DNA of 24,796 bases from Candidatus Heimdallarchaeota archaeon (GCA_030614005.1 JAUWKS010000046.1:1-24796), one strand, 5' to 3'. Positions 841 to 24,796 are shown, counted from the stretch's first letter. Translations and numbers: made by a program. The notes: generated by a model from the sequence alone, not told the origin.

Positions 841-842
841 AT

Positions 843-1220: not shown

Positions 1221-1259
1221 TAGGTATCATCTCACTTAATATCAATTTATTAATTATAA

Positions 1260-1415: not shown

Positions 1416-1436
1416 TATTTTTTCCTTCCTTTGTTA

Positions 1437-1775: not shown

Positions 1776-1812
1776 TTTTTTTCTCTCACATATACTAGTC
1801 ATCATTCAAGAA

Positions 1813-2777: not shown

Positions 2778-3494
2778 TTGAATAAAAAAATAAAAGTTGT
2801 TGATAGTATAATGGTTAAAAATATTCCTGATCTTGTCATTGCTCGCGAAGCTCGTTGGATGTATGAAAAAGGTCGTGGTTTTGAGCCTATCAAAGGCGAT
2901 ATGACTCGATGGAAAGGACTTATTCCAGGTAGAGGCGAATTTTCCAATCGCTTTTTCACTGTTGAAATTGAAATTATTGGGGGTTTTCCAGCTACTCCTC
3001 CTATTGTCAAAATGATTTCTGAAGTAGAGCACCCTAGAGTTACAAAAGGAAAAATTATTGATCTCTGGATTGTTAAGAAATGGAATCCTGAGTATCATAT
3101 ATTCCAAGTTGCTAATTCCATTAAGGGGTTATTTGCTCGTGAACCTCTACGACCTGCTAAACATTTACTTGAGAAGGGTGCCAGACCAATTTCGGCTGCA
3201 TCAAGACCTGATAATGCAGTTAAAGTCTTTACTCGACAAAAGGCTCAACTTGAAGATGTTCTACGTCAAAAAGAACAAGAACTAGCTAATATTCGTGCTG
3301 GTATGAGTGGTAAATCATCTCTTAATCGAAGCTCAGAACGTGAAAAATACCTTGAGCGCCGAAAGCTGCAACTTGAAGAAGAACTCTTTGATTGCGAAGA
3401 GAAATTCCATTGGGCAGATTATTCAGCTACTGATTTTGCAAAAAATTATCTTCGTATTCGTAAGCAACTTCAGATCATTACACAGATAAGTTAG
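2778..3494 (+). CDS. UEV (catalytically inactive E2-fold) + coiled coil + Vps23/Vps37-like C-terminal helical box; ESCRT-I-like protein
   Basis: UBC fold pattern WKGLIPG...FTVEIEIIGGFPATPPIVKMISEVEHPRV...IDLWIVKKWNPEYHIFQVANSIKGLF with Asp where E2s have the catalytic Cys; coiled coil KAQLEDVLRQKEQELANIR; C-terminus LEEELFDCEEKFHWADYSATDFAKNYLRIRKQL resembles Vps23 steadiness box/Vps37 Mod(r). TTG start 2778, alternative ATG 2811. Confidence 0.75.
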   Translation: MNKKIKVVDSIMVKNIPDLVIAREARWMYEKGRGFEPIKGDMTRWKGLIPGRGEFSNRFFTVEIEIIGGFPATPPIVKMISEVEHPRVTKGKIIDLWIVKKWNPEYHIFQVANSIKGLFAREPLRPAKHLLEKGARPISAASRPDNAVKVFTRQKAQLEDVLRQKEQELANIRAGMSGKSSLNRSSEREKYLERRKLQLEEELFDCEEKFHWADYSATDFAKNYLRIRKQLQIITQIS

Positions 3495-3653
3495 CTTATT
3501 TGTTGTTTTCCTTTTTTTCTCAGCTCATTTTCCGCTGAGATTTTTCTCTTATTTGTTCAAGTTTTATCTTCTAAACATTAATTTGAATGATAGTATTAAA
3601 ATAAGTAAGAGTATACTTTCTTTGATTGTTTGTAATTATCTTGGTGATTACTG

Positions 3654-4862
3654 TTGATTGTTATTATTATTGCGGCTGGACAAGCAAAACGATTACGACC
3701 CTTGACAGAAACTCGTTTGAAGGGATCATTACCCATAATGAATGAACCTCTTTTAGTTCATATGGCAGATATGATTGAAGAATCTGGTTTAATGGATAAA
3801 TTGGTTATAGTGGTTTCTCCAGGTCAAGTTGAAAAGATGCGTGCTATTTTTGCTAGTAAGGAATATTCCAATAAAATAGAGGTTACTATCCAAGACCCTG
3901 CACAAGGTACTGCAGACGCTGTTGCACAAGCAGAACCATTCGTTGGTAATGAAAAACACTGTTTAGTTATGAATGGAGATATTCTTGCTCCTTTGGATGC
4001 AATCATTCCTGAACTAATTGATCATCATAAAAAAATCAATGCTAAATGCTCTATGGTTGTTTTCCCAGGAGAAGATGAACGATATGGATTACTTCGAATA
4101 ACTGATGATGGGAAAGTTCTTGATATTAAAGAAAAAGCAAAAGGAGATTCTAATGATGGCGAACAAAAGTACATCAACGCAGGAATTTATCTTTTTGGTA
4201 ACGATCTTTTTGATACTATACGGGCAACGCCTCTTTCAGAGAGAGGTGAATACGAAATAACTGACACTATTTCACTTCTTGGTAAGAAAGGAGCAATTGG
4301 TGCACTAATTACGAATAATTGGATGAGTATTGAGAACCCGATTGATTTATTCAATGCTCAGAAATTTTTCCCGCCAAAAGAAGAAACGCTCAAAATGCAA
4401 TTTCATTCTGGCGGAGAAATAGGTTTCAAAGCTGCTGAAGATATATTCTTTGATGCAGAAATAGAAATAGAATTCTCTAGTGTTTTCTTTAAAGGACCAG
4501 TTCTTGTTGGTAAAGGAACTCTAATTGAAACTGGATCTAAAATCGGTCCACGGGTCTATATTGGTTCTGATTGTGAAATTGGTGGTGATAGCATAATTGC
4601 TGAAACATTAATGATGAAAAAGTCTCGCATTGAAAATAGTTGTGAAATTGCATCCACAATCATTGGGGAAGAAGTAGTAGTGGGTTCTAACTCAAAAATT
4701 ATCCCCATAAAACTTTCAAAGGAATTATTGAATGGTAATCGCGATCGCAATAAGCTAAATGATTTTATTATTATTGGTGGGAAATCAATCTTATCAACAG
4801 GAGTCACCATTACAAAAGGTTGTAAAATTGCAGCTCATTCTATAGTGAAAAAGGATGATTAA
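3654..4862 (+). CDS. Sugar-phosphate nucleotidyltransferase with C-terminal left-handed beta-helix (GlmU/MPG1-like)
   Basis: IIAAGQAKRLRPLT, QGTADAV, VMNGDI, INAGIYLF, RGEYEITD, then hexapeptide repeats (GPVLVGKGTLIETGSKIGPRVYIG); GGTGA at 3643-3647 before TTG. Confidence 0.9.
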   Translation: MIVIIIAAGQAKRLRPLTETRLKGSLPIMNEPLLVHMADMIEESGLMDKLVIVVSPGQVEKMRAIFASKEYSNKIEVTIQDPAQGTADAVAQAEPFVGNEKHCLVMNGDILAPLDAIIPELIDHHKKINAKCSMVVFPGEDERYGLLRITDDGKVLDIKEKAKGDSNDGEQKYINAGIYLFGNDLFDTIRATPLSERGEYEITDTISLLGKKGAIGALITNNWMSIENPIDLFNAQKFFPPKEETLKMQFHSGGEIGFKAAEDIFFDAEIEIEFSSVFFKGPVLVGKGTLIETGSKIGPRVYIGSDCEIGGDSIIAETLMMKKSRIENSCEIASTIIGEEVVVGSNSKIIPIKLSKELLNGNRDRNKLNDFIIIGGKSILSTGVTITKGCKIAAHSIVKKDD

Positions 4863-5529
4863 ACAAATGATCAATTCTTTAAAATGTATTATCTTTGATT
4901 TCGATAATACCCTAGTTAAATCGAATATAGATTTCCCAAAAATGAAAATCGAAATGGCACGCTTAACAAATAATTTCGGTTTAGAATTCGGAAGTGAAGA
5001 AGAGATTCCTCACAAATACACCGCAGGAAATATCATCGATAAAGCTGAATCTTTTGATAAAAGAAATGGTACTATGTTAGTACCAGAATTATGGCAAGTT
5101 GTCGAAGAATTTGAACGTAAAGGAATGGAAAATATTACAATAGATCAAGATGTTCTTTCTATGTTAAATTCTATGAAGAGTTTCAAAATTGAAACTACAC
5201 TGTTAACCAATAACGCTTGTAATCCAACTGTTGAAGTTTTAAAAAGATTCAACATACTAGACTATTTTTCTATGATTGTTGCCCGAGAAGACGTTAAGAA
5301 GATGAAACCAGACAAAGAAGGCATTGATCTCATTTTATTTAAAATGAATCTTCATCCAGATGAAGTCATTTTTATTGGAGATTCTTGGGTTGATGCGAAG
5401 GCAGCAAATGAGGCAGGAGTACCTTTTGTTTTAATTCGCAATGACTTATTAGATGCTCAAAAATATGGAATAACCATTTGGAAGCATATTCGCTCGATGG
5501 CAGAACTTGTCCAGATTATAAAAAAGTAA
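4855..5529 (+). CDS. HAD-superfamily hydrolase (phosphoglycolate phosphatase-like)
   Basis: Motif I FDFDNTL, motif II LLTNN, motif III/IV KMKPD...FIGDSWVD; overlaps the upstream gene by 8 nt. Confidence 0.9.
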   Translation: MIKQMINSLKCIIFDFDNTLVKSNIDFPKMKIEMARLTNNFGLEFGSEEEIPHKYTAGNIIDKAESFDKRNGTMLVPELWQVVEEFERKGMENITIDQDVLSMLNSMKSFKIETTLLTNNACNPTVEVLKRFNILDYFSMIVAREDVKKMKPDKEGIDLILFKMNLHPDEVIFIGDSWVDAKAANEAGVPFVLIRNDLLDAQKYGITIWKHIRSMAELVQIIKK

Positions 5530-5537
5530 GAACTCTT

Positions 5538-6491
5538 TCACTGATATTCCTTTTCTAACCATGAAATGTATTTCTTAATTCCATCTTTGATTGAAGTTTT
5601 TGGTTTCCATTGCAATGCTTTTGTGGCTTTTGTAGTATCAGATACTGCTTTTCTAACATCTCCTGCCCAACCTCGTTCACCACCTGTATAAGAATATTCT
5701 ACATTTTCTAGTTCCATTGCTGCCACCACACCATCAGCAATTTCATTTACAGTTACTCCTTCAGAAGTTGCAATGTTAAAAGCTGTATGTCCACTTAATT
5801 GTGTTTGTAATGCGCGGATATGGGCTTCCACACAATCATCAACATATAGATAGGATTTTATTTGCTTTCCATTACCGAGAATTTCCAATGTTTGTGGATT
5901 CTTTTTTAATTTCAAAAAGAAATCTCGCATTACTCCATGATTTGATGGAGGTCCGAAAATATTGCCTAACCGCAATGAAATGGCATCAATTTCATATAAA
6001 CTAGCATAACTGGCCAAGTATTGTTCGCTTGCTGCTTTTGAGGCTCCATAGTGGCTAATTGGATCCAATCGATGATCTTCAGGAGTTGGTATTACTTTTG
6101 TTTCTCCATACACTGTTCCTCCTGATGATGCAAAAACAACTTTTGATATTTTATTATTTGTCATTGCTTGTAGGACGTTTAATGTTCCTAAAACATTGAT
6201 TTCAAAATCCTTGAAAATATTATCTTTACTAGTTCTTACATCCGGATTTGCTGCTTCATGTATTATTGCATCATAGTTTCTGAATTCTTTTTCGAGAAAC
6301 TTTGAATCCATTATACTTCCTTCAACAAAAGTACATCTTTCTTTATTCTTCATAGGTTCCTCAATATACTCTACTTTCCCCGCTGACAAATCATCAATTG
6401 CTTTTACTGAATAACCTTCACAAACCAATTTTGTAACAATATTACTACCAATGAATCCACATCCGCCAGTAACAATTATTTTTTGACCCAT
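5538..6491 (-). CDS. NAD-dependent epimerase/dehydratase (UDP-glucose 4-epimerase-like extended SDR)
   Basis: VTGGCGFIG Rossmann motif, FASSGGTVYG, YGASK catalytic YxxxK, LRLGNIFGP, YLYVDD. Confidence 0.92.
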   Translation of the reverse strand: MGQKIIVTGGCGFIGSNIVTKLVCEGYSVKAIDDLSAGKVEYIEEPMKNKERCTFVEGSIMDSKFLEKEFRNYDAIIHEAANPDVRTSKDNIFKDFEINVLGTLNVLQAMTNNKISKVVFASSGGTVYGETKVIPTPEDHRLDPISHYGASKAASEQYLASYASLYEIDAISLRLGNIFGPPSNHGVMRDFFLKLKKNPQTLEILGNGKQIKSYLYVDDCVEAHIRALQTQLSGHTAFNIATSEGVTVNEIADGVVAAMELENVEYSYTGGERGWAGDVRKAVSDTTKATKALQWKPKTSIKDGIKKYISWLEKEYQ

Positions 6492-6630: not shown

Positions 6631-7332
6631 TTGGATAGAAAGCTACTCCTGATGGTTCTAAAAAAGACAAAAGATGTCCCGTATCTTCTATTGAAAGAAT
6701 TGAAGGAAGAAACTACTCCTAGCAGAATAAATTCTTTTCTGAAGGAAATAGAACAGATTGGAATACAACTACAACCGACAATAGATGGTAACTTTCAAAT
6801 TACTCGAGAGCAGAGAGCTCAGTTAGTAGTCTATGGTGCAAGGAATGAGGTAGATTGGGATAAAATCATCAAACAATTATCCTGGCAAGAATTTGAACTA
6901 TTAACAACAATGGTCGGCGATGAGTTCGGTTATGTAGCAAAAACAGGATTGAATTTCTCGACAGAAGAGCGAAAATATCAAATTGATGTTATCTTAAAGA
7001 ATTCACCTTACATAATTCTTATTGATTGTAAACATTTTGGAGGTACAGGAAAACAATCAATATTACGTACTGCAGCTACTGAACAAATAATTCGTGCTGA
7101 AGCGCTAGTAGCGAATTTCAATGAACTGAAAGGTAAAATTAATGTGAGAAAATGGAAGAGGGTTATAGTATTACCGATGATAGTTACATGGTTAGATGAT
7201 TCAGTCTATTTTCATGAAAATGTACCTGTCGTCCCTTTTACAAAATTACACTCGTTTTTCACTGATTTCTATTTGTATATAGATGACATTTTTCAGATAC
7301 CTGTGAATCTTTCTAAGAAAAAAGAAAATTAG
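6631..7332 (+). CDS. PD-(D/E)xK restriction endonuclease-like protein (Mrr-cat/NERD-like)
   Basis: LSWQEFE...YQIDVI...IILIDCKH provides the E...D...DxK catalytic set. Confidence 0.75.
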   Translation: MDRKLLLMVLKKTKDVPYLLLKELKEETTPSRINSFLKEIEQIGIQLQPTIDGNFQITREQRAQLVVYGARNEVDWDKIIKQLSWQEFELLTTMVGDEFGYVAKTGLNFSTEERKYQIDVILKNSPYIILIDCKHFGGTGKQSILRTAATEQIIRAEALVANFNELKGKINVRKWKRVIVLPMIVTWLDDSVYFHENVPVVPFTKLHSFFTDFYLYIDDIFQIPVNLSKKKEN

Positions 7333-7534
7333 CTGCTTTTCTTATGCTAAAGAAGGTGCTCTAGAGGAAAAAATAATATTCTCTAGATGTTTTAATGTTT
7401 AAGAAGAAGGTCAAGTTATATATTCCTCAAACTAAATGATTAATAAAGCGAAAAAGTATTATCAAGCTTACTTGTGCAAGTAATAGTGATAATCATTGTA
7501 TAGTGAAAAAACGTATTATTGAAGAGGACTGAAT

Positions 7535-9166: not shown

Positions 9167-9287
9167 TTCTCCTTCACCATTCTTTTATTGAAATCAAATG
9201 CTTAAAATATCAACGGGTAGTAGACTATTGGGAATTTTAAATATTTTACATTATGAGAAAGTGTGAAGTGACGCATAGATTAAAAGA

Positions 9288-9905
9288 ATGAAAACTTCGC
9301 ATAATAAAGAGGTTGAATTACAATTGACAGATTTATCAGAAACCAATGAAAACGCTTCTCAAAACCATAATAGTAACTCAGATGGAGAAATTGAAGGTTC
9401 TGTTGCTTCTGCAGCTGCATCCCGGAGTGGGAGTATCGAAGAACGAAGTACGTTAGGTTTCAAAACAGTAAAGAATATTTTTTCTAAACAAAAGAAAATA
9501 GCTCTAGTTATTGATGCCCCAAATATTCTTCGTAGAGTGAATAACAAGCAGATTCGTCTCGAGGATATTGAGAGAATTGCTAATAAATTGGGACAAATTA
9601 AAATTGCCAAAGTGATTTTAAACCGTCATGCTCCTCGCAATTTATTAAAAGCAGTCGAAAACAGTGGCTATGAACCTATTGTTGCTTCAAGTGATATTTA
9701 TATTCGCATGGTCATTGAAGTTATGGATAGCGTTTTTTCAAATAATGTTGATATTGTTATTATCGCTAGTAGACATGCACGATGTGCACCACTACTTCGA
9801 GCTGCAAAAGCAAATGGTTTAGACACGGCTATTATTGGTTTTCAACCTGGTTTTAGTATTGCTGTTAAGAATGCAGCTGATATGGCATTTCAGTTAGAAG
9901 TTTAG
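9288..9905 (+). CDS. NYN (LabA/DUF88, TIGR00288-like) PIN-fold protein, active site degenerate
   Basis: ALVIDAPNI, LLKAVENSGYEP, VDIVIIAS, IIGFQPGFSIAVKNAAD match the archaeal NYN family pattern; about 60 aa low-complexity N-terminus. Confidence 0.8.
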   Translation: MKTSHNKEVELQLTDLSETNENASQNHNSNSDGEIEGSVASAAASRSGSIEERSTLGFKTVKNIFSKQKKIALVIDAPNILRRVNNKQIRLEDIERIANKLGQIKIAKVILNRHAPRNLLKAVENSGYEPIVASSDIYIRMVIEVMDSVFSNNVDIVIIASRHARCAPLLRAAKANGLDTAIIGFQPGFSIAVKNAADMAFQLEV

Positions 9906-10027
9906 TTGTTACTAGCTTTTTTCTTTTATTTCTTTTAATTCAAGTACTTGTTAGTATTTAAAAAGCAATTAAGGTACCATCTTTATTTGATTTAATCAAA
10001 TTTCAATTGAATTAAAGGTTGTCTAAT

Positions 10028-11410
10028 ATGAGCCAAAAGATAGTTATTATTGGGAATGGTCCCGCGGGTATGAGCGCAGCAGGCGCAGCACGTTTAGCTG
10101 ATAGAGCAGCAGAAATCACGGTTATAGATTCAAAAGAATATGATACCTATCACCCGTGTGCTATGCCTTTTGTAATAGGTGGATATCTGCCAGATATCGA
10201 CTCCATTATCGAAGACCTTAATTACGAAAGATCAAAGATTACACTTCATAAAAGTTCAATGGTGGAAAAGGTAGATACTGAGAAGAAGAAAGTACACTTT
10301 AAACATAAAAGTGGAGAAGAATCTTCTATTGATTATGATAAATTAGTTCTTTGTATTGGTTCTTATGTTTTTGTTCCACCCATACCTGGAAGAGATTTGG
10401 GCAATGTCTTTACGCTTAAATTTGCAGAAGATGCTGCAGCAATTAAACAAGCAGCCGATGCTAAAGATGTTAAAAATGTTGTAGTAGTCGGTGGAAGTGC
10501 TATTGGCATAGAAGTTGCTTCTGAATTAATTCATTTAGATAAAAAGGTTACAATTATTGAAATGCAACCTCAACTTATGCCTTTCAAAATATCCAGTGGT
10601 TTTGCCAAGTTAGTAAAAGAAAACTTAGAAGAAACTGGTTTGGTTGTTAAAACTGAAATGATGGTTAAGGAAATCATTGGTAAAGGTAATGTTCAGAAAA
10701 TCAAATACGGTAACAAAGATTCTGAAGAAACCATTGATGCAGACCTTATTGTGTTAGCAACAGGAGTTCGATCAAATGTTGAACTTGCTAAAACTATGAA
10801 TCTAAAAATCCACGATAAATTCAAAGCCATTGAAGTCAATGACAAAATGGAAACAAGTATCAAGGACATTTATGCTGCTGGTGATTGTGTAGTTGTTAAT
10901 AATTTGGTTACAAATAGTACAAGTCTTGCTATGTTAGCTGGTCCAGCTGTTAGACAGGCAAGAGTTGCTGGAATAAATGCTGCAGGTGGAAACAATTCAT
11001 ATCCTGGAAGCGTCAATTCCTTTATTGTTTCTTCAAGGACTTTTTATGTTGGTCTTGCGGGTTTAAATGACGAGCAAGCAAAGGAAAGAGGAATCGAAAT
11101 TGTTACGGCAAAACTTTCTGCCCCCATTAGGCCACACTATATGCCTGAAAGCAAAGAAATTACCATTAAACTTATTGCCCAAGCAAATGATGGAAAAATA
11201 CTTGGCGTAGAAGTAATAGGTGAAGAAAAAATTGATGAAAATGTCAATTATGTTGCTTTTGCATTACAAACTGGTTTAACTGTTTATGATATAATGAATA
11301 TTGACTTTTGTTATGCCCCCGCTGTTTCTGAAACAATTTATCCTTTAGTAAAAGTTGCAGATGTTTGTATTCGTAAAATTGAGCGAAAAAAAGCGAAAGC
11401 ACAAAAATAG
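10028..11410 (+). CDS. FAD-dependent pyridine nucleotide-disulfide oxidoreductase (NADH oxidase/CoA-disulfide reductase family)
   Basis: IIGNGPAG FAD motif, YHPCAMPF single redox Cys, VVGGSAIGIE NAD motif, TSIKDIYAAGDC, C-terminal DFCYAPAVS. ATG 10028 favoured (AAGGT upstream); track starts at TTG 10019. Confidence 0.9.
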   Translation: MSQKIVIIGNGPAGMSAAGAARLADRAAEITVIDSKEYDTYHPCAMPFVIGGYLPDIDSIIEDLNYERSKITLHKSSMVEKVDTEKKKVHFKHKSGEESSIDYDKLVLCIGSYVFVPPIPGRDLGNVFTLKFAEDAAAIKQAADAKDVKNVVVVGGSAIGIEVASELIHLDKKVTIIEMQPQLMPFKISSGFAKLVKENLEETGLVVKTEMMVKEIIGKGNVQKIKYGNKDSEETIDADLIVLATGVRSNVELAKTMNLKIHDKFKAIEVNDKMETSIKDIYAAGDCVVVNNLVTNSTSLAMLAGPAVRQARVAGINAAGGNNSYPGSVNSFIVSSRTFYVGLAGLNDEQAKERGIEIVTAKLSAPIRPHYMPESKEITIKLIAQANDGKILGVEVIGEEKIDENVNYVAFALQTGLTVYDIMNIDFCYAPAVSETIYPLVKVADVCIRKIERKKAKAQK

Positions 11411-11473
11411 TTGTCGACAAAAAAATAATTGAAAGTTTTCCTGAGAAAGGAAAACTCTTCTATCTCTTTTTAA

Positions 11474-13342
11474 CTAATTTATCGAAACAATGCTCTTACA
11501 ATAGAAAACATTGATGAGATAAATCACTTCTAATTTTAGAACATCACCGGCTTCTAGGAATAGTACTTGTTCCCAATAAGTTAGATTTAGATAATTTTGA
11601 GTGAACCATACTGTTTGATTTTCACTAACCGGTGTTACTTCCCCTTCTGGAAGATATGTTAGGTTACCATAGGCTACGTAAATTGTGTCCCCATCTTTTT
11701 CAAATGAGGTTATTGCTTCAATTTCCAATGTTTCTGTATAGTTTGAAGTTGAGCTTCCTTCATCTCCTAGCATTATCAAATAACTATCTAGTGCTCTTAT
11801 TAACACTGTTTCCACTGTGTCGCTTGGATCAGCAAATTCTACAATGGTTTCTATACCACTCGTATCAAATGGATTTGTTATAGTTATTCCTCCAAATCTT
11901 AATTGCTCGAATTGAATTGGAACAATATATGCATAGTCAGATATGTTTTGGTATTTATCTCTCACTGGATACAATAATGGTAATATTGGATGGTAATTAT
12001 GTTCTGTTGTTCCTACTTCAACATCAATAGCAGTTGCACAATGTATCAGTGCATTGTAGGTATCAATTGGTTTTGGATAAAGATTGGACCAATCAAAGAA
12101 GAAGATACCAGATCCATTTGCTTTTATTGCACCCCTCAATAACTGGCTTTCAGATTCAGGTTGTGTGAGCATAACATATTGTGATGTTTCACCAGTATTT
12201 GCATCATAAATAACTCTAACATCATCATACCAAGAAATTCCTAGTTGCTCTGTGGTAGTAAAGAAGTATTGAAATTCATGATTGCCTTTTCTGTGTCTAC
12301 CCCATTTATTAATATTAAATTCTAACCAATCCTCAGGGTAACATTGAATTCGAGCATAATGTGGTAAATCTTCGAGTTCTGTATGGTCTTTGATCAAATT
12401 GCCTAATGAATCATATTCAAGCACGCCACCAACTTTTTCTAAATAGGTCGTCATTGCTATTCCGTTGACGTTTTCAATTGTCAAACTATTTGAGATTGAA
12501 TATGGTACAAGTAACCGCATTTGATTTTCATCATTCATTGAGAAATAGCTGTTATCGCCAGCTCTGTAATTAGGATTATATTTCCAGATAATTCTGCCCA
12601 ATGTCTTTGATCGGACTAGATAATGGCCAATTGTGAAGGATTGCTCAATGACTACCACATCTGCACCTGGATCTGTCAAGTCTACTCCAACAAAACCAAA
12701 AATGGAGTTCCGTTTCCGTTCAGCGTTATCCGTTCCAACATGAAACGAATCCGTACCTATCACACCAATCCACATCAATTTTCCATATATTTTACCGACA
12801 TGCATTTCTAAAATCATTGTATTGCTACCAAATGGAGATGATTTTTGGATGATTTCTTCTGCAAGATCACTATCGACCACACGTAAATGGTCACCCGTAA
12901 CAATGTTGTTGAAAGGCAATTCCCCTTCAGGAAATTCAAGTACTGTGTCGAAGTAGCGCGCGGTATCAAACCCCCTATAAATCGCAGCACTCAGACCAAA
13001 ATAAGCAGGTGTTATAATCAGGAGAATGCCTACTACTAATACAATGATCTTCTCTGGCGATCTTCCTAATCTACCGAAACTTTTTGAGAATAATCTCAAC
13101 ATAACGATTATCATAATACCACCAAGTAATAGGCCTACCACAATTACTGTACCCCATGTTGGCAAAGAATACCAAAATTGTGTTAGAGAGATGAGAAATC
13201 CTGCTACGAAGGCTCCACCACCAATGATGCCCATTGAAGGAGTTGCTTCTCCTTTCGCTATCCAAACTACAAGAGTAGCGAGAACGCCAAATATCGAACC
13301 CAGAATAAGTGCCAATAGTGCAAAATGCATGCCATCAATCAT
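11474..13342 (-). CDS. Uncharacterised membrane protein: about 4 N-terminal TM helices plus large, probably extracytoplasmic, domain
   Basis: Hydrophobic segments in the first about 120 aa, then a T/N/Y/D-rich soluble region with several N-x-S/T sequons. Confidence 0.7.
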   Translation of the reverse strand: MIDGMHFALLALILGSIFGVLATLVVWIAKGEATPSMGIIGGGAFVAGFLISLTQFWYSLPTWGTVIVVGLLLGGIMIIVMLRLFSKSFGRLGRSPEKIIVLVVGILLIITPAYFGLSAAIYRGFDTARYFDTVLEFPEGELPFNNIVTGDHLRVVDSDLAEEIIQKSSPFGSNTMILEMHVGKIYGKLMWIGVIGTDSFHVGTDNAERKRNSIFGFVGVDLTDPGADVVVIEQSFTIGHYLVRSKTLGRIIWKYNPNYRAGDNSYFSMNDENQMRLLVPYSISNSLTIENVNGIAMTTYLEKVGGVLEYDSLGNLIKDHTELEDLPHYARIQCYPEDWLEFNINKWGRHRKGNHEFQYFFTTTEQLGISWYDDVRVIYDANTGETSQYVMLTQPESESQLLRGAIKANGSGIFFFDWSNLYPKPIDTYNALIHCATAIDVEVGTTEHNYHPILPLLYPVRDKYQNISDYAYIVPIQFEQLRFGGITITNPFDTSGIETIVEFADPSDTVETVLIRALDSYLIMLGDEGSSTSNYTETLEIEAITSFEKDGDTIYVAYGNLTYLPEGEVTPVSENQTVWFTQNYLNLTYWEQVLFLEAGDVLKLEVIYLINVFYCKSIVSIN

Positions 13343-13433
13343 CCATATGTTTAAGGTTTTAACAACTTCTTTAATTTAAATGAATATTGTTCTAGAAAAA
13401 TAATAGTAGAAGTAGTTTAAATAGATTCTTTCT

Positions 13434-15137
13434 CTAATAAAGACTAATCAAATCTGTTGTTTTAGCTAATACTCTTCCAATACGGTTGCTGTAAGAAATT
13501 TCTAGTTCACTCATTCCAAGACCATCCAAACTAATAGTTGGTTTAATCGTCCTTTGTGAATTCGGCGGTATTTTTTTCCCTACAATTGAGCGTATTTTGA
13601 TTATTCCATCTACATATTCTCTTATTTCGCAGCATCCAGTGAGAGTGCTTTCTGAATGGTTAATAAGGATAATTTGTGGTTTAAAAGAGACCCCTTGTTT
13701 TATCGCATCAGGCATTTCCACTTTTAACTCGAGCATTTTCTGCTTCTTTTTTGAAATAGCAATTGGTTTATTTCTAGTAATTTTTACAAAATCAACCCCT
13801 TGTTTTTCATTTCCGTTAATAATTTTTATTTTACTCAGCTCAATTATTTTGGGTTTAATTTTTGATGAATCAAAAATTTGTGGTCCAATGATTTTCACGG
13901 TTTTGTTTATTACTGGATGGTTAATCGCTGAGTGATTATTTCCATTACTTAGAACAATATTCCAGATAATATCAACATCAATTTTCTGAGTAGGTTCTAT
14001 TACTTGATATTTGTAAGCTACTTCTTTAGCTAAAGTTCCACCCATCCAATTACCTCGAGTAACGATGATATTTAATGGTAAAGACCCGAGAATAATTTCA
14101 CTGCCTCTCTGCATTGTAAGATCTATAGGAATCCATCTCCCTTGAACTAAGAATTCTGCTGTAGCGTGTCTCTCCCAGATTTGAGCTAAAGCAAAGCCGG
14201 CATTGGTTCTTGCAGGTATACCAGCAGCACGGCAAAGAGCAACAAATAAGGCAGCAAATTCAGTGCAATCACCTTTCCCCTTTTCAATAGCAAAAGCTGC
14301 ACCGAATTCTCCCGGTTGTATTTCATATTTTATCGTTTTTTGTACTTGTTTTGCTGCTCGTTTTGCAAAAGTAAGTGGATTGCTATCTGGAATCTTTGCA
14401 GCCATCTTCACTATTTTAGGATGATTACTTTCAATATGCGGTTCAGGTTGCAAATATTTTTGTAAGAATTTTCTTTCATAGGGATTTGCTTTCTTAATTT
14501 TAGAAATCCTTTGAGGGATAATCAACGGTTTCATTTCAACTTCAGCACTATAACTCAATAAGCGCGATTCTTTTGCTTCCATTCTATTTGCTGAGAAATG
14601 CGTCCAATGATTTCCCTCTACATCAGTTGAAATTTTTAAGTTGCTTGGATGAATTTGTAAATTGCTCACTATTTGCTGCGGAGAAATAGTTAATGGTAGT
14701 GCAATGAATGCTGAAAAATTGCCTACTGGTTTTTCACTGATGTTTATTACTTTTAATGAATAGTTAAGAAGCCATTTTGGATTATGCATTCGGTTTATTA
14801 CATGAGCATTGGTTCCAGCTTGGAAGTAAAAAAAGCAACTGGTTATTATTTTCCCATTAGTATCCAGTACACTAGTTAAATAACGACCACTGGTCCAATT
14901 TTTTGGAATTATGATATCAAAATAAACAATTTTTGTATGATCAAATACAGGCAAACTAGAATTAACAACTCTAATTTCATATGGATTTAGAACTTCAACT
15001 TTGGAAGCGTTTACAATTGTGGAATCATTCATAGCTGGTATGACCATTAATCTGAGCTGTTCTCCACTACTTATTGGATTTGTTTTAGTGATTGCTATTT
15101 CACCGATTGTGGTTGATTTGAACGCTTTAATTTGCAA
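13434..15137 (-). CDS. Transglutaminase-like cysteine protease-fold protein flanked by beta-rich domains
   Basis: GDCTEFAALFVALCRAAGIPAR...RHATAEFL...WIPIDLT gives an intact Cys-His-Asp triad; no signal peptide seen; Lys-rich linker before the C-terminal domain. Confidence 0.88.
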   Translation of the reverse strand: MQIKAFKSTTIGEIAITKTNPISSGEQLRLMVIPAMNDSTIVNASKVEVLNPYEIRVVNSSLPVFDHTKIVYFDIIIPKNWTSGRYLTSVLDTNGKIITSCFFYFQAGTNAHVINRMHNPKWLLNYSLKVINISEKPVGNFSAFIALPLTISPQQIVSNLQIHPSNLKISTDVEGNHWTHFSANRMEAKESRLLSYSAEVEMKPLIIPQRISKIKKANPYERKFLQKYLQPEPHIESNHPKIVKMAAKIPDSNPLTFAKRAAKQVQKTIKYEIQPGEFGAAFAIEKGKGDCTEFAALFVALCRAAGIPARTNAGFALAQIWERHATAEFLVQGRWIPIDLTMQRGSEIILGSLPLNIIVTRGNWMGGTLAKEVAYKYQVIEPTQKIDVDIIWNIVLSNGNNHSAINHPVINKTVKIIGPQIFDSSKIKPKIIELSKIKIINGNEKQGVDFVKITRNKPIAISKKKQKMLELKVEMPDAIKQGVSFKPQIILINHSESTLTGCCEIREYVDGIIKIRSIVGKKIPPNSQRTIKPTISLDGLGMSELEISYSNRIGRVLAKTTDLISLY

Positions 15138-18002: not shown

Positions 18003-19526
18003 TTACCCTAAACTGCCAACTTCTTTTTCTACTTCTTCAAGAATTTCACATGATTTGACCAATGCTTTCATAGCATTGTGATCGTCGAACAATGGTCTAT
18101 CCTCATCAAGGAAATCAACATGTTTGCGAATAATTTCTTTGGCTTTAGTAACCCCATCACCAAATTTGAACTCTCTAAAGTCTAATGCTTGTGCAGCAGC
18201 CATATATTCAATGCCTAATACACCATATGCATTATCCAAGATTTGATTGTTCTTTAAAGCAGTATTCATACCCATTGATACAAAGTCTTCTTGATCTGCA
18301 GCAGCAGGAATAGACTGAATGCTTGCAGGAGCTGATAAAATTCGCATTTCAACGATTTGCATACCTGCAGTATATTGGCTTAACATTAAGCCAGACATTA
18401 AACCTGCGTTTTTGGTTAAGAACGGTGGTAAACCTACACTGAGTGCTGGATGGTTTAATCTGTTCATTCTTCTTTCAGACATAACACAAATCATGGTTAC
18501 TGCAACACCGGCCATATCCATTGGTAATGAAACAGGTGTTCCTTGAAAGTTTGCACCAGTGATAGTTAATTTTTCGTCTGGGAAGAAGACTGGATTATCT
18601 CCGACGCCATTTAGTTCGATTTCGACTTGTGAGCGAGCCCAAGCTAATGCGTCATGTGCTGCACCAATTACTTGAGGAGCGGAACGCATAGAGTAAGCGT
18701 CTTGTACTTTTACTTTCAATTTTGCTTCATACAAGTCTCCGCCTTTGAAAAGTTTGGACAAGGCTCTTGATGTTCTTATTGCTCCTGCGAATCCCCTAAT
18801 TTTATGTAATTTTGGAGTGTAAGGTTTCATATTACCCATTAAAGCTTCAATTGACATTGCACAAGCGATTTCTGCTTGTTTCATGAAATTCAATGCATCA
18901 TACAACCAAAGAGCACTCATTCCCGTAAGGAAATTAGAACCATTAATTGCTGCTAATCCATCTCTGGGTTCTAATCCAGGGACTTTTATCCCTGCTTTTT
19001 CCATTGCCTCTTTTCCAGAGATTAATTTACCCTTATAGAAGGCTCTTCCTTCGCCCATAAGTAGTAAAGCAATTTGTGACATAGAACACAAGTCACCAGA
19101 AGCACCAACAGAACCCTTTTCACAGACTTCAGGAGTGACGCCTTTATTTAACATTTCAACCATTGTTTCAGCAATAATCACTCTGTTACCAGAGTTACCA
19201 TGAGCGAGAACATTAATTCTACCCAGTATTGCAGCTCGAACATGTTCGATTGGTGCTGCTTTTCCAATACCAGCAGCATGATTGTAAATCAAATATTTTT
19301 GGAATAAATTTACTTCTTCACCTTTAAGAAAAGTTTCACTGAATTCGCCGATTCCAGTAGTTATTCCGTACATTACTTCATTTGCTTCGATTTTTTCTTC
19401 GAGCATATCTCTGCATTTTTGCATGCGTTTAATCGCATCAGGATGTAACTTTACTTTTTCATTGTGTCGTGCGACTTTTACAACATCTTCAATTGTTAGT
19501 CCAGCACCTTCTATTGTATAGGTCAT
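18003..19526 (-). CDS. MIO-dependent aromatic amino acid ammonia-lyase (HAL family, divergent subtype)
   Basis: [18 protein letters not shown] (MIO-forming ASG), GLAAING, QDAYSMRSAPQ, DNP, QEDFVSMG. Likely start ATG 19526 (MTYTIEG; AAGGTGG upstream) rather than track GTG 19622. Confidence 0.93.
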   Translation of the reverse strand: MTYTIEGAGLTIEDVVKVARHNEKVKLHPDAIKRMQKCRDMLEEKIEANEVMYGITTGIGEFSETFLKGEEVNLFQKYLIYNHAAGIGKAAPIEHVRAAILGRINVLAHGNSGNRVIIAETMVEMLNKGVTPEVCEKGSVGASGDLCSMSQIALLLMGEGRAFYKGKLISGKEAMEKAGIKVPGLEPRDGLAAINGSNFLTGMSALWLYDALNFMKQAEIACAMSIEALMGNMKPYTPKLHKIRGFAGAIRTSRALSKLFKGGDLYEAKLKVKVQDAYSMRSAPQVIGAAHDALAWARSQVEIELNGVGDNPVFFPDEKLTITGANFQGTPVSLPMDMAGVAVTMICVMSERRMNRLNHPALSVGLPPFLTKNAGLMSGLMLSQYTAGMQIVEMRILSAPASIQSIPAAADQEDFVSMGMNTALKNNQILDNAYGVLGIEYMAAAQALDFREFKFGDGVTKAKEIIRKHVDFLDEDRPLFDDHNAMKALVKSCEILEEVEKEVGSLG

Positions 19527-19742
19527 ATTTTTCCACCTTGAGTGAATAATTGTTAAAGTATTTGACACAAGTTTAAAATCTTTATCTAGAAAGTATGGGA
19601 TGAGGTCGTTTCGCTCTCCCACAATTTACCCACAAAAAGTGATTTTACGAATTCTTACGTATAACCTGAAATTTTTTTCTCAAAAAAAGTATATAGTAGT
19701 TTAAGACTATAGTTATTGTGATAGAATAGTGATTGATGGAAC

Positions 19743-20430: not shown

Positions 20431-22149
20431 TCAGGAGACTGCTTTTACGATGCTTCCATCAATTACCTTTGCAGCTATTTTCTCTATATCGGTATAAATT
20501 ATTCTATCGTAAGTTAATGTTGGAATAATGGTTCTGATATATTGATAAGCTTTGAAAGTCTTATCTCCTAGAGCATCTTCTGGAGTTAAATTTTGAGTTT
20601 CGCATCTTAGATCAACACCTTGTGCTGCTAACATCATTTCTATAGCAATGATGTAGACTAAATTTTCATTTATGGCCACAACATTTCTTGCTGCAATTGG
20701 ACTCATGCTAACATGATCTTCTGCATTTGCGGATGTTGGAATTGAATCTATGGACGCAGGGGAAGCTAATACTTTGTTCTCAGAAGCTAGTGCTGCTGTA
20801 ACATATTGTGGCATCATAAACCCACTATTTAACCCTAAAGCTTCTCTGTGGATTAGAAATGCACCCAATCCCTCATTCCTAGAGCCGTCAACTAATTTTG
20901 CACAACGTCTTTCCGCAATATTACCTAATTCAGACATTGCTATTGCTAGATGATCCATAGCAATTGCTATTGGTTCGCCATGAAAATTACCACCAGAATA
21001 AATATCAAATTCTAATGGATTTTCCCTCTTAATGAATATCAATGGATTATCTGTTGCTGCATTTATCTCTCGAGATAATATTGTTTTAGTATTATCCATT
21101 ACATCACTGATTGGTCCTAGTACTTGTGGGGAGCATCGAATTGAATAATCATCTTGTAATTTTGGCAGTGTTTTTATGAAGGTGTTCTTTCCTAAACCGC
21201 ATTTTGGACAGGTCCAATCTTCTGGCAGATCCTCAAAAAGAGTCCATTCATTAATTCCGCGATTTGTATCACCCATTTCGGAATCGTAGTAGTATCCACA
21301 AAATTCTCCAAAACAAGTATAGACATCTCCATAGATTTTCACTAGTTTACTCCCTTTATAGAATTCTCTTATTTTTCGAGCAATTGCTATTTGCCCTGGG
21401 TGATGTCTAGCTAAATGTATTCTCTCATCAAACTGTTGTTTAGCAGCTTTTAGAGCTTCCATTGTTAATACAAGCGCTATTAGTGAATTCTCCAATAAAT
21501 TATACGAATCCTTTATTGCCATGCAAGCAATTCCGGCAGAATATTGTACACCATTATTTAAAGCCAACCCTTCTTTATATGATAATTTTGTAATTGGTAT
21601 ACCAGCTTTTTCTAAGCCATCTTTTGCATCAAATATTTTACCTTTATATTTTAAATTCTTATGACCATCACCTATCATTGCTAATGCCATATGTGAAAGT
21701 TGGGCTAAATCACCACTCGCGCCAACAGATCCTTTACATGGAATGATTGGTAATACATTGTCATTTATCATAGCCATTAGATTCTCCATTGTAGAGAGTT
21801 TACAACCAGAATGCCCTCGAGCCAATGCAGCAACCCGCAAAACCATCATTGCTTTTACCTGTTCATCTTTTGCCGGTTCACCCACTGCGACAGAATGGCT
21901 CCGGATTAAATTTATCTGTAATTGCTCAGCATCTTTCTCCCGGATTACGATGTCCCTTAGAGAACCGAAACCAGTAGTAATTCCATAGACTTTCTGTCCT
22001 GATTCCACAGCTATTTCAATCGCTTTTCTAGCTAATCGTACTTTTTTCTTAACTGGTTCCGAGAGAGTTAATTGGTAATTATTTCTCACAATGTTGCATA
22101 CATCTTCATGTGACAAACCTTTTTCTTTAAGAACAATAGTTTTTGCCAA
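20431..22149 (-). CDS. hutH: Histidine ammonia-lyase with internal rubredoxin domain
   Basis: [15 protein letters not shown] (HAL-type His), [47 protein letters not shown]; about 52-aa rubredoxin insert. TTG start with AGGAG upstream. Confidence 0.9.
21170..21325 (-). other. Rubredoxin domain inserted in-frame in the ammonia-lyase
   Basis: [48 protein letters not shown]; contains the rubredoxin pattern L-x3-W-x-C-P-x-C-G and CGYxYD...GD...FEDLPEDW. Confidence 0.92.
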
Positions 22150-22294: not shown

Positions 22295-22591
22295 CTAATC
22301 CTCTTGATAAGCAGCTTTGAGCATTTTTCTTTTCCGATAATTTCCACCCTTAAAATGTAAAATGCATTTGAATTTAGGATAACAATTTGGAGGAGGTGAT
22401 TCTCTATATTGAATATCCCGTTCGGATAAGATCTTAATCGTTTTTGGTTTAGGTTTCTCGTCTATAGCTTCATCTTTTAAATCAAAGTTCTCAATTTCAT
22501 CAGTTATTTCATCTTTACTATTTGATGAGCTAATTTCGAAAGCAAACTCATTGAAATTATCAGTTGATTGATCATCTTCCCTTTTCTTCAA
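22295..22591 (-). CDS. Small hypothetical protein (acidic N-half, C-x5-C-x2-H C-terminal segment), last gene of the Ubl operon
   Basis: TTG start overlaps the E2 stop (TTGA), GGAGG upstream within the E2 3' end; 98 aa with no recognised family. Confidence 0.6.
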   Translation of the reverse strand: MKKREDDQSTDNFNEFAFEISSSNSKDEITDEIENFDLKDEAIDEKPKPKTIKILSERDIQYRESPPPNCYPKFKCILHFKGGNYRKRKMLKAAYQED

Positions 22592-23367
22592 ATTATACGT
22601 ATGCCTCCTTTTTTCTTATCCTTAATCTTTTGTGAGGAGCCTTTCGTTTCTTCGGCCTCTTTTGGAATAATTCTAATTGCACTTTTTTCTTTACCAACTT
22701 GTTTTTTGTTATCTTCACCGATTATTTTTATTCCACCACCACTATCTTTCAGAGAAGCTTTTTCGTGTTTTGTATCCCAATTAACTAACATTGCTTTGTG
22801 TATATTTTCTGCATCTTTTTCGAACCAACGCATAGCCAATGTATTCATTCCAGAATCCTCTTTGGGGTATAGTTTGGGTGGGCGTATTCTTCTTGGATCC
22901 ATTAATAGATGGTAAATTAAATCTATCAAAATTCTATCCACTTCTCCATTTACTATTATACAAGCATCTCCTCTGCTGGACATGGATATTCTTGGATGCC
23001 AAAGTCTTGTTACAGATTTCATTTTTATGTGGGATAAGTTTGCTGGGTAAACCCTTGGTAGATGTATCGTAAATTTATGAGTGTAACCAATGTTCATTTG
23101 TTCTTTTTGGGCTGATTGACCAACCAAACCAGGAGTTCTTCTAGTAGTAAACAGTATCTCTCTAAATGCCCCATCTTGATATTTTCCTGTTATTTCTACA
23201 GTATAATCCTCTTGTACCCATTTGTCACCTTTTCGTGCGAATGGTTGCCATTTCCATCCTTCTTTTTTGAAGAAATCTTCCATTGAATCATAAAAAACAT
23301 TTATTGATTCAGCTATTCGGGCATTTACTACGGTTGCTGGGAAATTTGCTCTTGAAATTTTTTTCAC
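22588..23367 (-). CDS. E2 ubiquitin-conjugating-enzyme-like protein with intact catalytic Cys
   Basis: HKFTIHLPRVYP...TRLWHPRIS...GDACI...DSGMNTLAMRWF parallels the UBC pattern (FPxxYP, HPNI, GxICL, DPLNxxAA); low-complexity tail. Confidence 0.85.
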   Translation of the reverse strand: MKKISRANFPATVVNARIAESINVFYDSMEDFFKKEGWKWQPFARKGDKWVQEDYTVEITGKYQDGAFREILFTTRRTPGLVGQSAQKEQMNIGYTHKFTIHLPRVYPANLSHIKMKSVTRLWHPRISMSSRGDACIIVNGEVDRILIDLIYHLLMDPRRIRPPKLYPKEDSGMNTLAMRWFEKDAENIHKAMLVNWDTKHEKASLKDSGGGIKIIGEDNKKQVGKEKSAIRIIPKEAEETKGSSQKIKDKKKGGIRII

Positions 23368-23471
23368 CTTTACTTTGATTTCATTAAGATAAGTTGGGGA
23401 TTAATTGATCTATAATCCCCTGAAGATTATTATCTAACTAGTTTTGTTGTTGAGGGTTCGTTTCGGGGTTT

Positions 23472-23783
23472 TTATCCAACTTGAGCACAAGCATCAAGTT
23501 TGAAGCGTTCATTTGTTTCTAGTATTGGTTCTAATGAACCGAATGTTGCTGCAGGAGGTAAGGCAGTATTACCTGTTGATTTTCGCATTAGTACGAAACT
23601 AACATTTGGTTGCCCTACTTTTTCTTTGGCCCATTTGGATATGTCTACTCCTTCATCTACACATCGTTGTACTAATGTTTTAACAACTTCATCTATGGTA
23701 GATTCTTCTTCAACAGCTACCCTAAACTCTTTTTGTCTAGGCTCTACATCAACGATTATTTCTCGCCATATTTCTTCGCTCAT
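23472..23783 (-). CDS. Ubiquitin-like (beta-grasp) modifier ending in -AQVG
   Basis: Predicted beta1 WREIIVDVE, beta2 KEFRVAV, helix STIDEVVKTLVQRC, beta3 SFVLMRK, LPPAATFGSL (ubiquitin LxDxxTL-like), beta5 RFKLDA, terminal Gly then stop; lies between E1 and E2 genes; AAGGTG upstream. Confidence 0.82.
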   Translation of the reverse strand: MSEEIWREIIVDVEPRQKEFRVAVEEESTIDEVVKTLVQRCVDEGVDISKWAKEKVGQPNVSFVLMRKSTGNTALPPAATFGSLEPILETNERFKLDACAQVG

Positions 23784-23909
23784 TTGTTAACACCTTTAAT
23801 TGATTTTTTTTTTCTTTACTGCATAATTTCTTATTACTACTGTTGGATGCTGCTCTGCATCTTTGATAACCCAACAATAATTGATTGATGGAAATTACCG
23901 ATGTGAGCA

Positions 23910-24764
23910 TCAATTTTTCCTTCTTGCTCTACAAGTTACATCTACACATTTTGGATTGGGCATAATATCTCCAATAGTCAATTCATGATTTCTAAGGTCA
24001 TACCTAATCATTTTGCCAAAATTAGGTTCTTGGCCTTTTGTAATATTCGGGTATTTACCCTTTCCATCGCTACTAATGAGAATTTTAGTTGCTTCAACTG
24101 ACATTATTCCACCAACAATTGAAGTTAATGTACTAATCATTGGAAATTTAGGTAATGTGTCAATGAAAAATTCATCACATTTTAGCGTTACTTGATGATT
24201 CATTATTGAACGATAATAATCCTCACTCCATAAGCAAACGGCACAAGCAGTTTCGCCAGGAATATATATTTCAGCTTCTAAAAATGATCTTCCCATAGCA
24301 CCATTAACAATTGGTAATGGAGTTTCTAACATTAAATCTGCGAAGTTTAGCATATACCTTGCATAATCATTGTCCAATGCCATAATAATAAGGTCTACAT
24401 CATAAACTTCTAAGGGTGCTTCTTCTATTCTTACATCATAAGGTGTAATCTTTGTATTCGGAGCAATTTCCGGTAAACGCTTTGTTACTGCTTCAACTTT
24501 TGAAATATTTTTATGATCTTCAAGTCTGAAAAATATACAGCGATTTATGTTTGATTTACTCACTATATCGAAATCAACTAAACGAATATGACCTACACCC
24601 AGCATACCAAGATTTTTACAAACCTCATTTCCAACGGCTCCAGCACCAACACACAGGATTGTACTATCTTTTATTCGTTTGAGGTTATCTGTTCCGTAAT
24701 ATCGTCTATTACGATCTTCAAGATCATCCTCATAAAATCCTACATTTAGTGGTTTTTCAGTCAT
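23910..24764 (-). CDS. E1-like Ubl-activating enzyme (ThiF/MoeB family)
   Basis: CVGAGAVGNEVCKNLGMLG, LVDFDIVSKSNINR, SKVEAV, MALDN, zinc pairs CAVC and CVDVTC, candidate catalytic Cys in TLKCDE. Confidence 0.93.
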   Translation of the reverse strand: MTEKPLNVGFYEDDLEDRNRRYYGTDNLKRIKDSTILCVGAGAVGNEVCKNLGMLGVGHIRLVDFDIVSKSNINRCIFFRLEDHKNISKVEAVTKRLPEIAPNTKITPYDVRIEEAPLEVYDVDLIIMALDNDYARYMLNFADLMLETPLPIVNGAMGRSFLEAEIYIPGETACAVCLWSEDYYRSIMNHQVTLKCDEFFIDTLPKFPMISTLTSIVGGIMSVEATKILISSDGKGKYPNITKGQEPNFGKMIRYDLRNHELTIGDIMPNPKCVDVTCRARRKN

Positions 24765-24768
24765 TTTT

Positions 24769-24775
24769 TCACCTC
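24769..24775 (-). promoter_or_regulatory. Shine-Dalgarno site of the E1 gene
   Basis: GAGGTGA on the minus strand 4 nt before ATG 24764; similar GGTG(A) motifs precede several other genes. Confidence 0.7.
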
Positions 24776-24796
24776 TTTATCGTGCTGTATATTCAA

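Follow-up and report, generated by a model that had tools for sequence, protein, structure and literature searches.

What kind of protein-tagging pathway is encoded at the end of this Asgard contig, and on what does it act? The stretch analysed here, referred to as the window, is the entire contig C94 (24,796 nt; GCA_030614005.1 JAUWKS010000046.1:1-24796) from a 3.6-Mb, 90%-complete genome of a Candidatus Heimdallarchaeota archaeon. Open reading frame (ORF) calling places four same-direction genes on the minus strand at its end, encoding an adenylating enzyme (E1), a ubiquitin-like modifier (Ubl), a divergent UBC-like conjugating enzyme (E2) and a small protein of 98 aa. These four genes are the 3' half of a nine-gene Asgard cluster that also holds genes for a JAB-type protein, a Cys-rich zinc protein (Zn162) and an operon built around a structural maintenance of chromosomes (SMC) gene (Table 1). 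On balance, we lean toward reading the cluster as a complete thioester-type system for Ubl conjugation and deconjugation, one that either serves a second, Smc5/6-related SMC complex exclusively or acts by way of it. To our knowledge, the pairing of a Ubl tagging kit with an Smc5/6-type complex has so far been known only in eukaryotes.

A nine-gene cluster divided by a contig end

The E1 gene starts only 32 nt from the window end, and the window stops upstream of it. The window's final 127 nt recur exactly, in reverse complement, at one end of contig C84, and no third contig has them. On the operon strand, C84 carries, in order, the SMC gene, a gene in the kleisin position, a gene in the kite position, Zn162 and JAB, leading into E1. 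All nine genes occur in this same order on single contigs in three related metagenome-assembled genomes (L019, L020 and L021), flanked by an S8 peptidase gene on one side and an aromatic-lyase/rubredoxin gene on the other. The distance between the starts of the kite-position gene and of E2 is likewise similar: 3225 nt in a same-genus genome (G081) versus 3218 nt across the C84-C94 join. The exact overlap, together with the single-contig synteny in relatives, makes the join sound.

An earlier note, made from the window sequence alone, had described a compact E1-Ubl-E2-small operon, non-canonical in having no JAB/MPN or RING gene in view. ORF calls, Pfam matches and ortholog alignments bear out the four genes and their motifs. 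The apparent lack of JAB and RING, in contrast, is an artefact of the contig end: a JAB gene and a gene for a zinc protein of weak RING/U-box likeness both lie on C84, beyond the window. With JAB, Zn162 and an SMC-kleisin-kite operon, the joined cluster is not compact, nor is it non-canonical for want of these parts.

Components of the putative conjugation system

The E1 matches the Pfam ThiF family at 4e-39 and is a small adenylating enzyme of the ThiF/MoeB/UBA type, without a separate Cys domain and without a ubiquitin-fold domain. Its best PDB sequence matches are the active adenylation domains of UBA1 and UBA6 (1e-17 to 2e-14), followed by MoeB, UBA3, ThiF, SAE2 and UBA5 (UBA5 at 4e-10). 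Across eight orthologs from two Asgard classes the nucleotide loop GAGAVGNE is kept, with G40-x-G42-x-x-G45 and D131 invariant, as is the zinc set C174-x2-C177 plus C273-x4-C278. Also invariant is Cys196, which sits at the crossover-loop position between the zinc pairs and is the candidate catalytic cysteine. At the level of sequence, then, the protein combines an adenylation domain and nucleotide loop with a cysteine, as an E1 does.

The same E1 features would also suit a sulfur-carrier system of the MoaD, ThiS, Urm1 or SAMP type, in which the enzyme would make a thiocarboxylate and no conjugation would follow. The enzyme matches MoeB and ThiF in size and shares with them a zinc site and a Cys in the crossover loop, and its best NCBIfam matches are ThiF and MoeB, all far under their cut-offs. 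We consider this extremely improbable, since a dedicated E2 with an invariant cysteine, a JAB protein, precursor tails and Ubl-E2 fusions (described below) serve no sulfur transfer, since no rhodanese or sulfurtransferase is found among the cluster neighbours, and since the modifier ends in VG, as opposed to the GG of known carriers.

The window copy of the Ubl is encoded in mature form, ending ...AQVG at Gly103, and the terminal Val-Gly is invariant across the family. AlphaFold, run on an 18-sequence alignment, gives a confident beta-grasp fold (pLDDT 86), and the modelled protein has the exposed C-terminal glycine of a modifier. Foldseek comparisons of this model point to SUMO: in the PDB, SUMO1 chains come first (E about 2e-4, root-mean-square deviation 2.4-2.8 A, TM-score by target 0.8), and the top 30 Swiss-Prot matches are nearly all SUMO1/2/3, Smt3/Pmt3 and the SUMO-like domains of Esc2 and Rad60, proteins that work with Smc5/6. 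In VIA-align, the SUMO matches are tied with other beta-grasps, a BilA-type Ubl (8tyx) among them, and identity to SUMO is about 12% in the fold alignments. The sequence marks of the SUMO family are absent: the Ubl has no Pfam match at E <= 1, PF00240 and the SUMO/Rad60-SLD profiles included, its end is VG rather than GG, and its family profile finds nothing meaningful among PDB sequences. The SUMO likeness of the modelled Ubl is a lead, not a classification.

Elsewhere in the family, the modifier appears to be made as a precursor. In one Asgard family of 19 genomes, the Ubls carry one to three variable residues beyond the VG, and two distant metagenomic sequences, P0090 and P0100, are natural Ubl-E2 fusions joined just past '...VVGG'. 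Such tails and fusions predict a proteolytic maturation step, and the JAB protein is the obvious enzyme for it. The contig that carries P0100 has a guanine-cytosine (GC) content of 64%, which indicates that the Ubl-E2 family reaches other lineages. On its own contig (L077; 4.4 kb, 32% GC), P0090 has a gene for a zinc protein resembling Zn162 on one side and a Rep_1-like gene on the other (29.5 bits, under the cut-off), a hint that this locus may be a mobile-element copy.

The E2 is divergent. Its UQ_con match (17.8 bits, E 0.0027) is under the 27-bit Pfam cut-off, and a genome-wide PF00179 search lists three other E2/UEV genes and not this one. Several comparisons suggest a UBC-type enzyme. 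Firstly, the family profile matches PDB E2s at E 0.002-0.03 across the active-site block, the best being E2 G1, K, N and R2. Secondly, in an hhalign comparison with the canonical E2 of the same genome (prob 83.6%, E 8e-6), the family's Cys136 falls at the catalytic Cys and its HPR at the HPN; by this alignment, the protein has both the HPN-type motif and the cysteine. Finally, its Atlas features are nearest to 'ubiquitin-conjugating enzyme E2' clusters (0.94). Within the WHPR...AC motif, H124-P125-R126 and C136 are invariant, making Cys136 the candidate catalytic residue. At 50% identity, 1.84 billion proteins yield 56 representatives of the family, and all named members of the E2 and Ubl families are 'hypothetical protein' entries from Asgard bins; both are small, unannotated families. 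Four distant E2-family representatives (P0108, P0114, P0123 and P0106) lie on contigs of 1-3 kb, where their context is uninformative.

The Lys/Glu-rich C-terminal tail of the E2 carries three short hydrophobic motifs, GGIKII, AIRII and GGIRII-stop, of the general form G-[IV]-[KR]-I-[IL], with the last at the very C-terminus. Motifs of the type [IV][KR][IV][ILV] occur genome-wide at 0.55 per 1000 aa, and among about 2941 ORF-proteins the cluster E2 is both the only one with at least three of them within 60 aa and the only one that ends in one. All three are retained in a second Asgard class despite differing linkers, and similar C-terminal motifs are found in distant members of the family. By their sequence, they are candidate Ubl-docking strands resembling SUMO-interacting motifs (SIMs).

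The small gene that follows is predicted to be translationally coupled to E2. Its TTG start overlaps the E2 TGA stop (TTGA), the L019 ortholog having a classical ATGA overlap, and a GGAGG lies 13-17 nt upstream of the start. The encoded protein has an acidic, probably disordered N-terminal half and one I-x-I-[IL] motif (TIKIL), downstream of which lies a conserved block, ERDI..E..PPN[FY]SP.F...H, with I54, E57, P67-P68-N69, P72 and H79 invariant. Orthologs trail E2 in three Asgard lineages, and the protein has no family match in Pfam, NCBIfam or PADLOC. A complex prediction pairing the Ubl and the small protein reached 0.10, where the mark was 0.32, in a run without controls that counts neither for nor against binding.

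The JAB protein matches Prok-JAB (PF14464) at 9.6e-9 and keeps E78, H145-S-H147, S156 and D159, all invariant. The weak fold and hidden Markov model matches of Zn162 are nearly all RING, U-box, PHD or SP-RING domains, Nse2 included, suggesting a RING/U-box-like zinc protein of weak likeness; an Atlas feature search was uninformative (best 0.76). Zn162 is the fixed fourth gene of the SMC operon, as it is retained there across lineages with or without the Ubl module, including the Heimdallarchaeaceae, which have no Ubl genes. A short paralog, which shares its N-terminal Cys pattern, closes the Ubl-E2-small unit of the second Asgard class, and the tail of this paralog has two [IV]x[IV][IL] motifs.

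The associated SMC operon

The cluster SMC is a second paralog, since a canonical SMC of about 1200 aa is encoded at another locus, with ScpA adjoining and ScpB elsewhere in the genome. In profile comparisons, the cluster SMC matches Pyrococcus Smc at 3e-23 and human Smc6, its best eukaryotic match, at 2e-22 (82 bits), versus 48, 47 and 35 bits for SMC1A, SMC4 and SMC3 (SMC1A and SMC4 at about 1e-11 to 1e-12). In the control comparison, the canonical SMC scores 1e-79 to 1e-60 against SMC2, SMC3, SMC4 and SMC1; its 60 best matches listed, which reach down to about 7e-14, include neither Smc5 nor Smc6. By these scores, the cluster SMC appears closer to Smc5/6 than to SMC1-4, a statement of relative similarity only. 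Second archaeal SMC-kleisin-kite operons in TACK and Asgard archaea have been termed 'SMC5/6-related' by phylogeny (PMC8665677; bioRxiv 10.1101/2024.01.07.573240), and neither paper mentions a Ubl linkage for these operons.

The two genes after SMC encode proteins of 301 and 209 aa. The 209-aa kite-position protein has a C-terminal winged helix, and its profile finds nothing among PDB sequences; per-member Pfam scans of the kleisin-position family return noise only. Weak Atlas leads for the 209-aa protein are MAGE/Nse3 (0.81) and MksE/DUF4194 (0.77-0.80). As for the canonical SMC gene (L079), the N-terminal Walker-A domain begins about 106 codons before the first ATG, GTG or TTG of the open frame (552 versus 870), which points to either an atypical start codon or an error in the local assembly.

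Distribution and linkage across Asgard archaea

The E2 family was surveyed across 399 Asgard genomes and is present in 32. It occurs in 9/10 genomes of the window genus, in 2/2 of another family in the same class and, in other classes, in 1/1 and 19/19 genomes of two families; it was found in 0/30 Heimdallarchaeaceae and in 0/135 genomes of the largest family sampled. Within its clades (9/10 and 19/19), the cluster is core-like. Copies from the 19-genome family are about 35% (E2), 50% (Ubl), 52% (E1) and 30% (SMC) identical to those of the window.

Gene order changes between these lineages. In the 19-genome family, a JAB-E1 unit, a Ubl-E2-small unit with the short Zn162 paralog (on the other strand) and an SMC-301-209-Zn162 unit lie adjacent to one another. 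In the family represented by one genome, SMC-kleisin-kite-Zn162-JAB-E1 form one operon, and Ubl-E2-small are on another contig. The Heimdallarchaeaceae, including Ca. Heimdallarchaeum aukensis, have only SMC-kleisin-kite-Zn162. A Ubl module that stays tied to the SMC operon despite changing gene order is the classical signature of functional coupling.

The linkage could instead be historical, with the module serving as a general-purpose second Ubl pathway in regulation or proteostasis. The Heimdallarchaeaceae operon without Ubl genes, the lineage in which Ubl-E2-small lie on another contig, and the gaps of 126 and 104 nt that flank the Ubl gene are all consistent with mere adjacency. This is nonetheless rather improbable in our judgement: linkage is kept in three gene orders, in Asgard lineages whose proteins are 30-50% identical, JAB and E1 remain in the SMC operon where Ubl and E2 have moved off, and a Zn162 paralog lies within the Ubl-E2-small unit of the second class.

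A proposed Ubl pathway working with the SMC complex

From these parts we infer the following chemistry, docking and targets. The small E1, acting as a homodimer, would adenylate Gly103 of the Ubl and load it on Cys196, from which the modifier would pass to Cys136 of the E2. The E2 would then attach the Ubl to target lysines, alone or positioned by Zn162 in the manner of an E3. The likeliest targets would be subunits of the SMC complex or neighbouring DNA-bound proteins. JAB would trim precursors (the post-VG tails of one class and the Ubl-E2 fusions elsewhere) and strip the tag, and the hydrophobic motifs of the E2 tail (three), the small protein and the Zn162 paralog may dock on the SUMO-shaped Ubl in a SIM-like manner.

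Several observations weigh against this account. The Ubl ends in VG and not GG, and the PDB matches of the E2 do not single out Ubc9. Part of the conservation of the KKGG before the last E2 motif may be due to an overlapping ribosome-binding site, as its codons double as the GGAGG of the small gene. The Heimdallarchaeaceae operon implies that the SMC complex does not need the Ubl system. The kleisin and kite identities are assigned from operon position, protein sizes and the weak Atlas features, and hhalign comparison of these two families with the genome's own ScpA and ScpB finds no similarity.

Comparison with known systems

The canonical archaeal ubiquitin operon of Caldiarchaeum subterraneum and Asgard archaea encodes ubiquitin, E1, E2, a small RING finger protein and an Rpn11-like JAB (PMC5654768, PMC6043591). 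The cluster likewise brings five such roles together, with a Cys-based E1 and E2 and a JAB that would be able to trim precursors, and the Caldiarchaeum ubiquitin:Rpn11 complex is among the fold matches of the Ubl. That it is simply this already characterised system is very unlikely. A true ubiquitin (77 aa, PF00240, 49.9 bits, GG end) and a canonical E2 (157 aa, 112.9 bits) are encoded elsewhere in the genome, along with other ThiF-type E1s and two UEV/E2-like genes outside the cluster, as fits the earlier proposal of a second modifier pathway, running in parallel with a tag of its own. The cluster modifier is neither PF00240 nor GG-ended, and its E2 is below the UQ_con threshold; both belong to separate, far more divergent families, and the E2 family is absent from the 135 and 30 genomes of two large Asgard families. 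Further differences are a much smaller E1, a long motif-repeat tail on the E2, an extra small protein after it, and the embedding of the cluster in an SMC operon alongside coexisting canonical ubiquitin and E2.

In composition the cluster resembles the bacterial Bil system (BilABCD; bioRxiv 10.1101/2023.09.26.559546), as a prokaryotic set in which E1, E2, JAB and Ubl stand together after the contig join, with thioester-type cysteines. This likeness brings in a different reading, an anti-virus or anti-plasmid module in which an SMC-type sensor or restrictor (compare Wadjet, Lamassu and Smc5/6 against viral episomes) would be joined to a Bil- or CBASS-like Ubl arm tagging invader or effector proteins. 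In line with it, E1 and JAB match the PADLOC Cap2 'E1-E2' and 'JAB' models, JAB weakly matches the 6A-MBL cap2_3 model, SMC matches LmuB (1e-16) and JetC, one distant Ubl-E2 fusion adjoins the Rep_1-like gene, with its hint of a mobile element, and eukaryotic Smc5/6 also restricts viral DNA (10.1101/2024.01.07.573240). The E1, JAB and SMC matches in PADLOC, however, fall on generic catalytic cores; neither PADLOC nor NCBIfam, libraries that may not hold Bil models, returns a match for the Ubl, E2 or small protein; and the cluster has no nuclease or other effector and no JetD- or LmuA-like partner. Unlike Bil, it is archaeal, its E2 and Ubl have no sequence-model match, and it is tied to SMC-kleisin-kite genes and a zinc protein in a stable chromosomal setting, between the S8 peptidase and aromatic-lyase genes and apparently outside any defence island. 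Defence systems are typically patchy in distribution, and the near-universal presence of the cluster (9/10 and 19/19) disfavours the antiviral role that the earlier note had also raised. We keep that role as a rival and rate it unlikely.

The bacterial Bub system offers another diverged E1/E2/Ubl operon, and its BubAB includes a cleavable Ubl-E2 fusion, as do P0090 and P0100 in the cluster family; it works through serine oxyesters, with an E1 that has no catalytic Cys and a Ser-His protease (PMC11601596). The cluster has an invariant Cys196 in E1, an invariant Cys136 in E2 and, as its protease, a predicted JAB metalloenzyme; the comparison with Bub fails on these invariant cysteines. With the UFM1 system, the cluster shares a small, single-domain E1 and a Ubl ending in Val-Gly: UBA5 is a small single-domain E1 with its catalytic Cys inside the adenylation domain, and mature UFM1 ends in Val-Gly. 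The cluster E2, however, keeps an HPN-like HPR, a motif that UFC1 is not known to have. The fold matches are dominated by SUMO and not by UFM1, and among PDB sequences the E1 is less similar to UBA5 than to UBA1, MoeB and UBA3. A UFM1-like reading was set aside on the HPR and the weaker UBA5 match, leaving of the SUMO- or UFM1-like flavour once suggested only the SUMO part, and that as a lead from Foldseek and the SIM-like E2 tail.

A close parallel to the proposed SMC-linked pathway is eukaryotic Smc5/6, the one SMC complex with its own SUMO and ubiquitin ligases. Its built-in parts are Nse2/Mms21, an SP-RING SUMO E3, the RING protein Nse1, the kite Nse3 and the kleisin Nse4. In the cluster, an Smc5/6-type SMC gene with kleisin- and kite-position genes is likewise joined to a putative cross-brace zinc protein and a Ubl pathway, the modelled Ubl is nearest, by Foldseek, to SUMO and to the SUMO-like domains of Rad60/Esc2, and components carry SIM-like motifs. 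The differences are considerable. The link seen here is genomic (a shared operon or cluster); the single SMC gene implies a homodimer, unlike Smc5/6; and Zn162 is free-standing and of weak RING/U-box likeness, not an ortholog of Nse2 or Nse1. Unlike the SUMO pathway, the cluster has a VG end with no sequence match to SUMO, a single small E1 as opposed to Aos1/Uba2, an E2 not specially like Ubc9, and a JAB metalloprotease in place of Ulp/SENP cysteine proteases.

The SMC, kleisin and kite subunits of Smc5/6 have been traced to Asgard and TACK archaea, with ligase functions treated as eukaryotic inventions and Nse2 and the RING of Nse1 as additions made in eukaryotes (bioRxiv 10.1101/2024.01.07.573240). 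A bolder extension, which we think quite unlikely, is that the cluster is a surviving archaeal antecedent or close sister of the SUMO-Smc5/6 partnership: the Ubl would be a proto-SUMO read by SIM-like strands, Zn162 a forerunner of the RING-type ligase subunits Nse1 and Nse2, and the Ubl-SMC wiring pre-eukaryotic. If the coupling of the Ubl pathway to the SMC complex is real, protein tagging would have been paired with chromosome maintenance before there were eukaryotes, the view of the ligase functions as eukaryotic would have to change, and the cluster would offer a minimal expressible system, with one small protein per role, for an SMC-directed Ubl ligase. The Ubl and E2 are in addition new unannotated families, whose precursor tails and Ubl-E2 fusions yield clear biochemical predictions.

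Table 1. Coordinates of the cluster genes and of other features named in the text (window positions unless a contig or locus is given)
Feature	Location	Strand	Length	Remarks
E1	23910-24764	-	284 aa	Pfam ThiF
E1 Cys196 codon	24177-24179	-		candidate catalytic cysteine
Ubl	23472-23783	-	103 aa	beta-grasp modifier
Ubl Gly103 codon	23475-23477	-		C-terminal glycine
E2	22588-23367	-	259 aa	divergent UBC-like enzyme
E2 Cys136 codon	22960-22962	-		candidate catalytic cysteine
E2 C-terminal tail	22591-22755	-		Lys/Glu-rich; three short hydrophobic motifs
Small gene	22295-22591	-	98 aa	start overlaps E2 stop
Assembly overlap with C84 end	24670-24796		127 nt	reverse complement
SMC	C84 (L003 coordinates) 9206-12193	+	995 aa	SMC_N
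Kleisin-position gene	C84 (L003 coordinates) 12183-13088	+	301 aa	start overlaps SMC gene by 11 nt
Kite-position gene	C84 (L003 coordinates) 13085-13714	+	209 aa	winged-helix; 4-nt overlap
Zn162	C84 (L003 coordinates) 13735-14223	+	162 aa	Cys-rich; after 20-nt gap
JAB	C84 (L003 coordinates) 14258-14893	+	211 aa	Prok-JAB PF14464; ends 12 nt before E1 start
Short Zn162 paralog	L052:8078-8464	-	128-131 aa	length range of the three copies
Short Zn162 paralog	L054:8021-8413	-	128-131 aa	as above
Short Zn162 paralog	L055:11141-11536	+	128-131 aa	as above
P0090	L077:2940-3845			Ubl-E2 fusion
P0100	L078:8-901			Ubl-E2 fusion
Canonical ubiquitin	L017 (G000:C123) 7270-7503	-	77 aa	ends RTEGG; no conjugation enzymes adjoining
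Canonical SMC	L079 (G000:C9:35500-40200) 552-4163			about 1200 aa
Overlap with C91 (L014) end	1-127			reverse complement, from position 73
ThiF-type E1	C91 (L014) 4879-5880		333 aa
UQ_con protein	2778-3494	+	238 aa	probable UEV
NYN-domain protein	9288-9905	+
Transglutaminase-core protein	13434-15137	-
Aromatic amino-acid lyase	18003-19622	-		HAL/PAL-type
Aromatic amino-acid lyase	20431-22149	-		HAL/PAL-type

Neighbouring genes

The window start overlaps the end of contig C91, and with overlaps at both window ends, C91, C94 and C84 are probably one stretch; C91 encodes a further ThiF-type E1. Near the window start, beside ribosomal-protein genes, is a gene for a UQ_con protein (1.7e-12) with no Cys after its HPR and then a long coiled coil, which by its sequence is probably an ESCRT-I Vps23/UEV-type ubiquitin reader (UEV, ubiquitin E2 variant). 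Elsewhere, the window encodes an NYN-domain protein (1.5e-14), a transglutaminase-core protein (2e-20) and two aromatic amino-acid lyases of the HAL/PAL type. The lyase directly downstream of the cluster, which contains a rubredoxin domain as an insertion (PF00301, 1.4e-14), is the conserved neighbour in related genomes.

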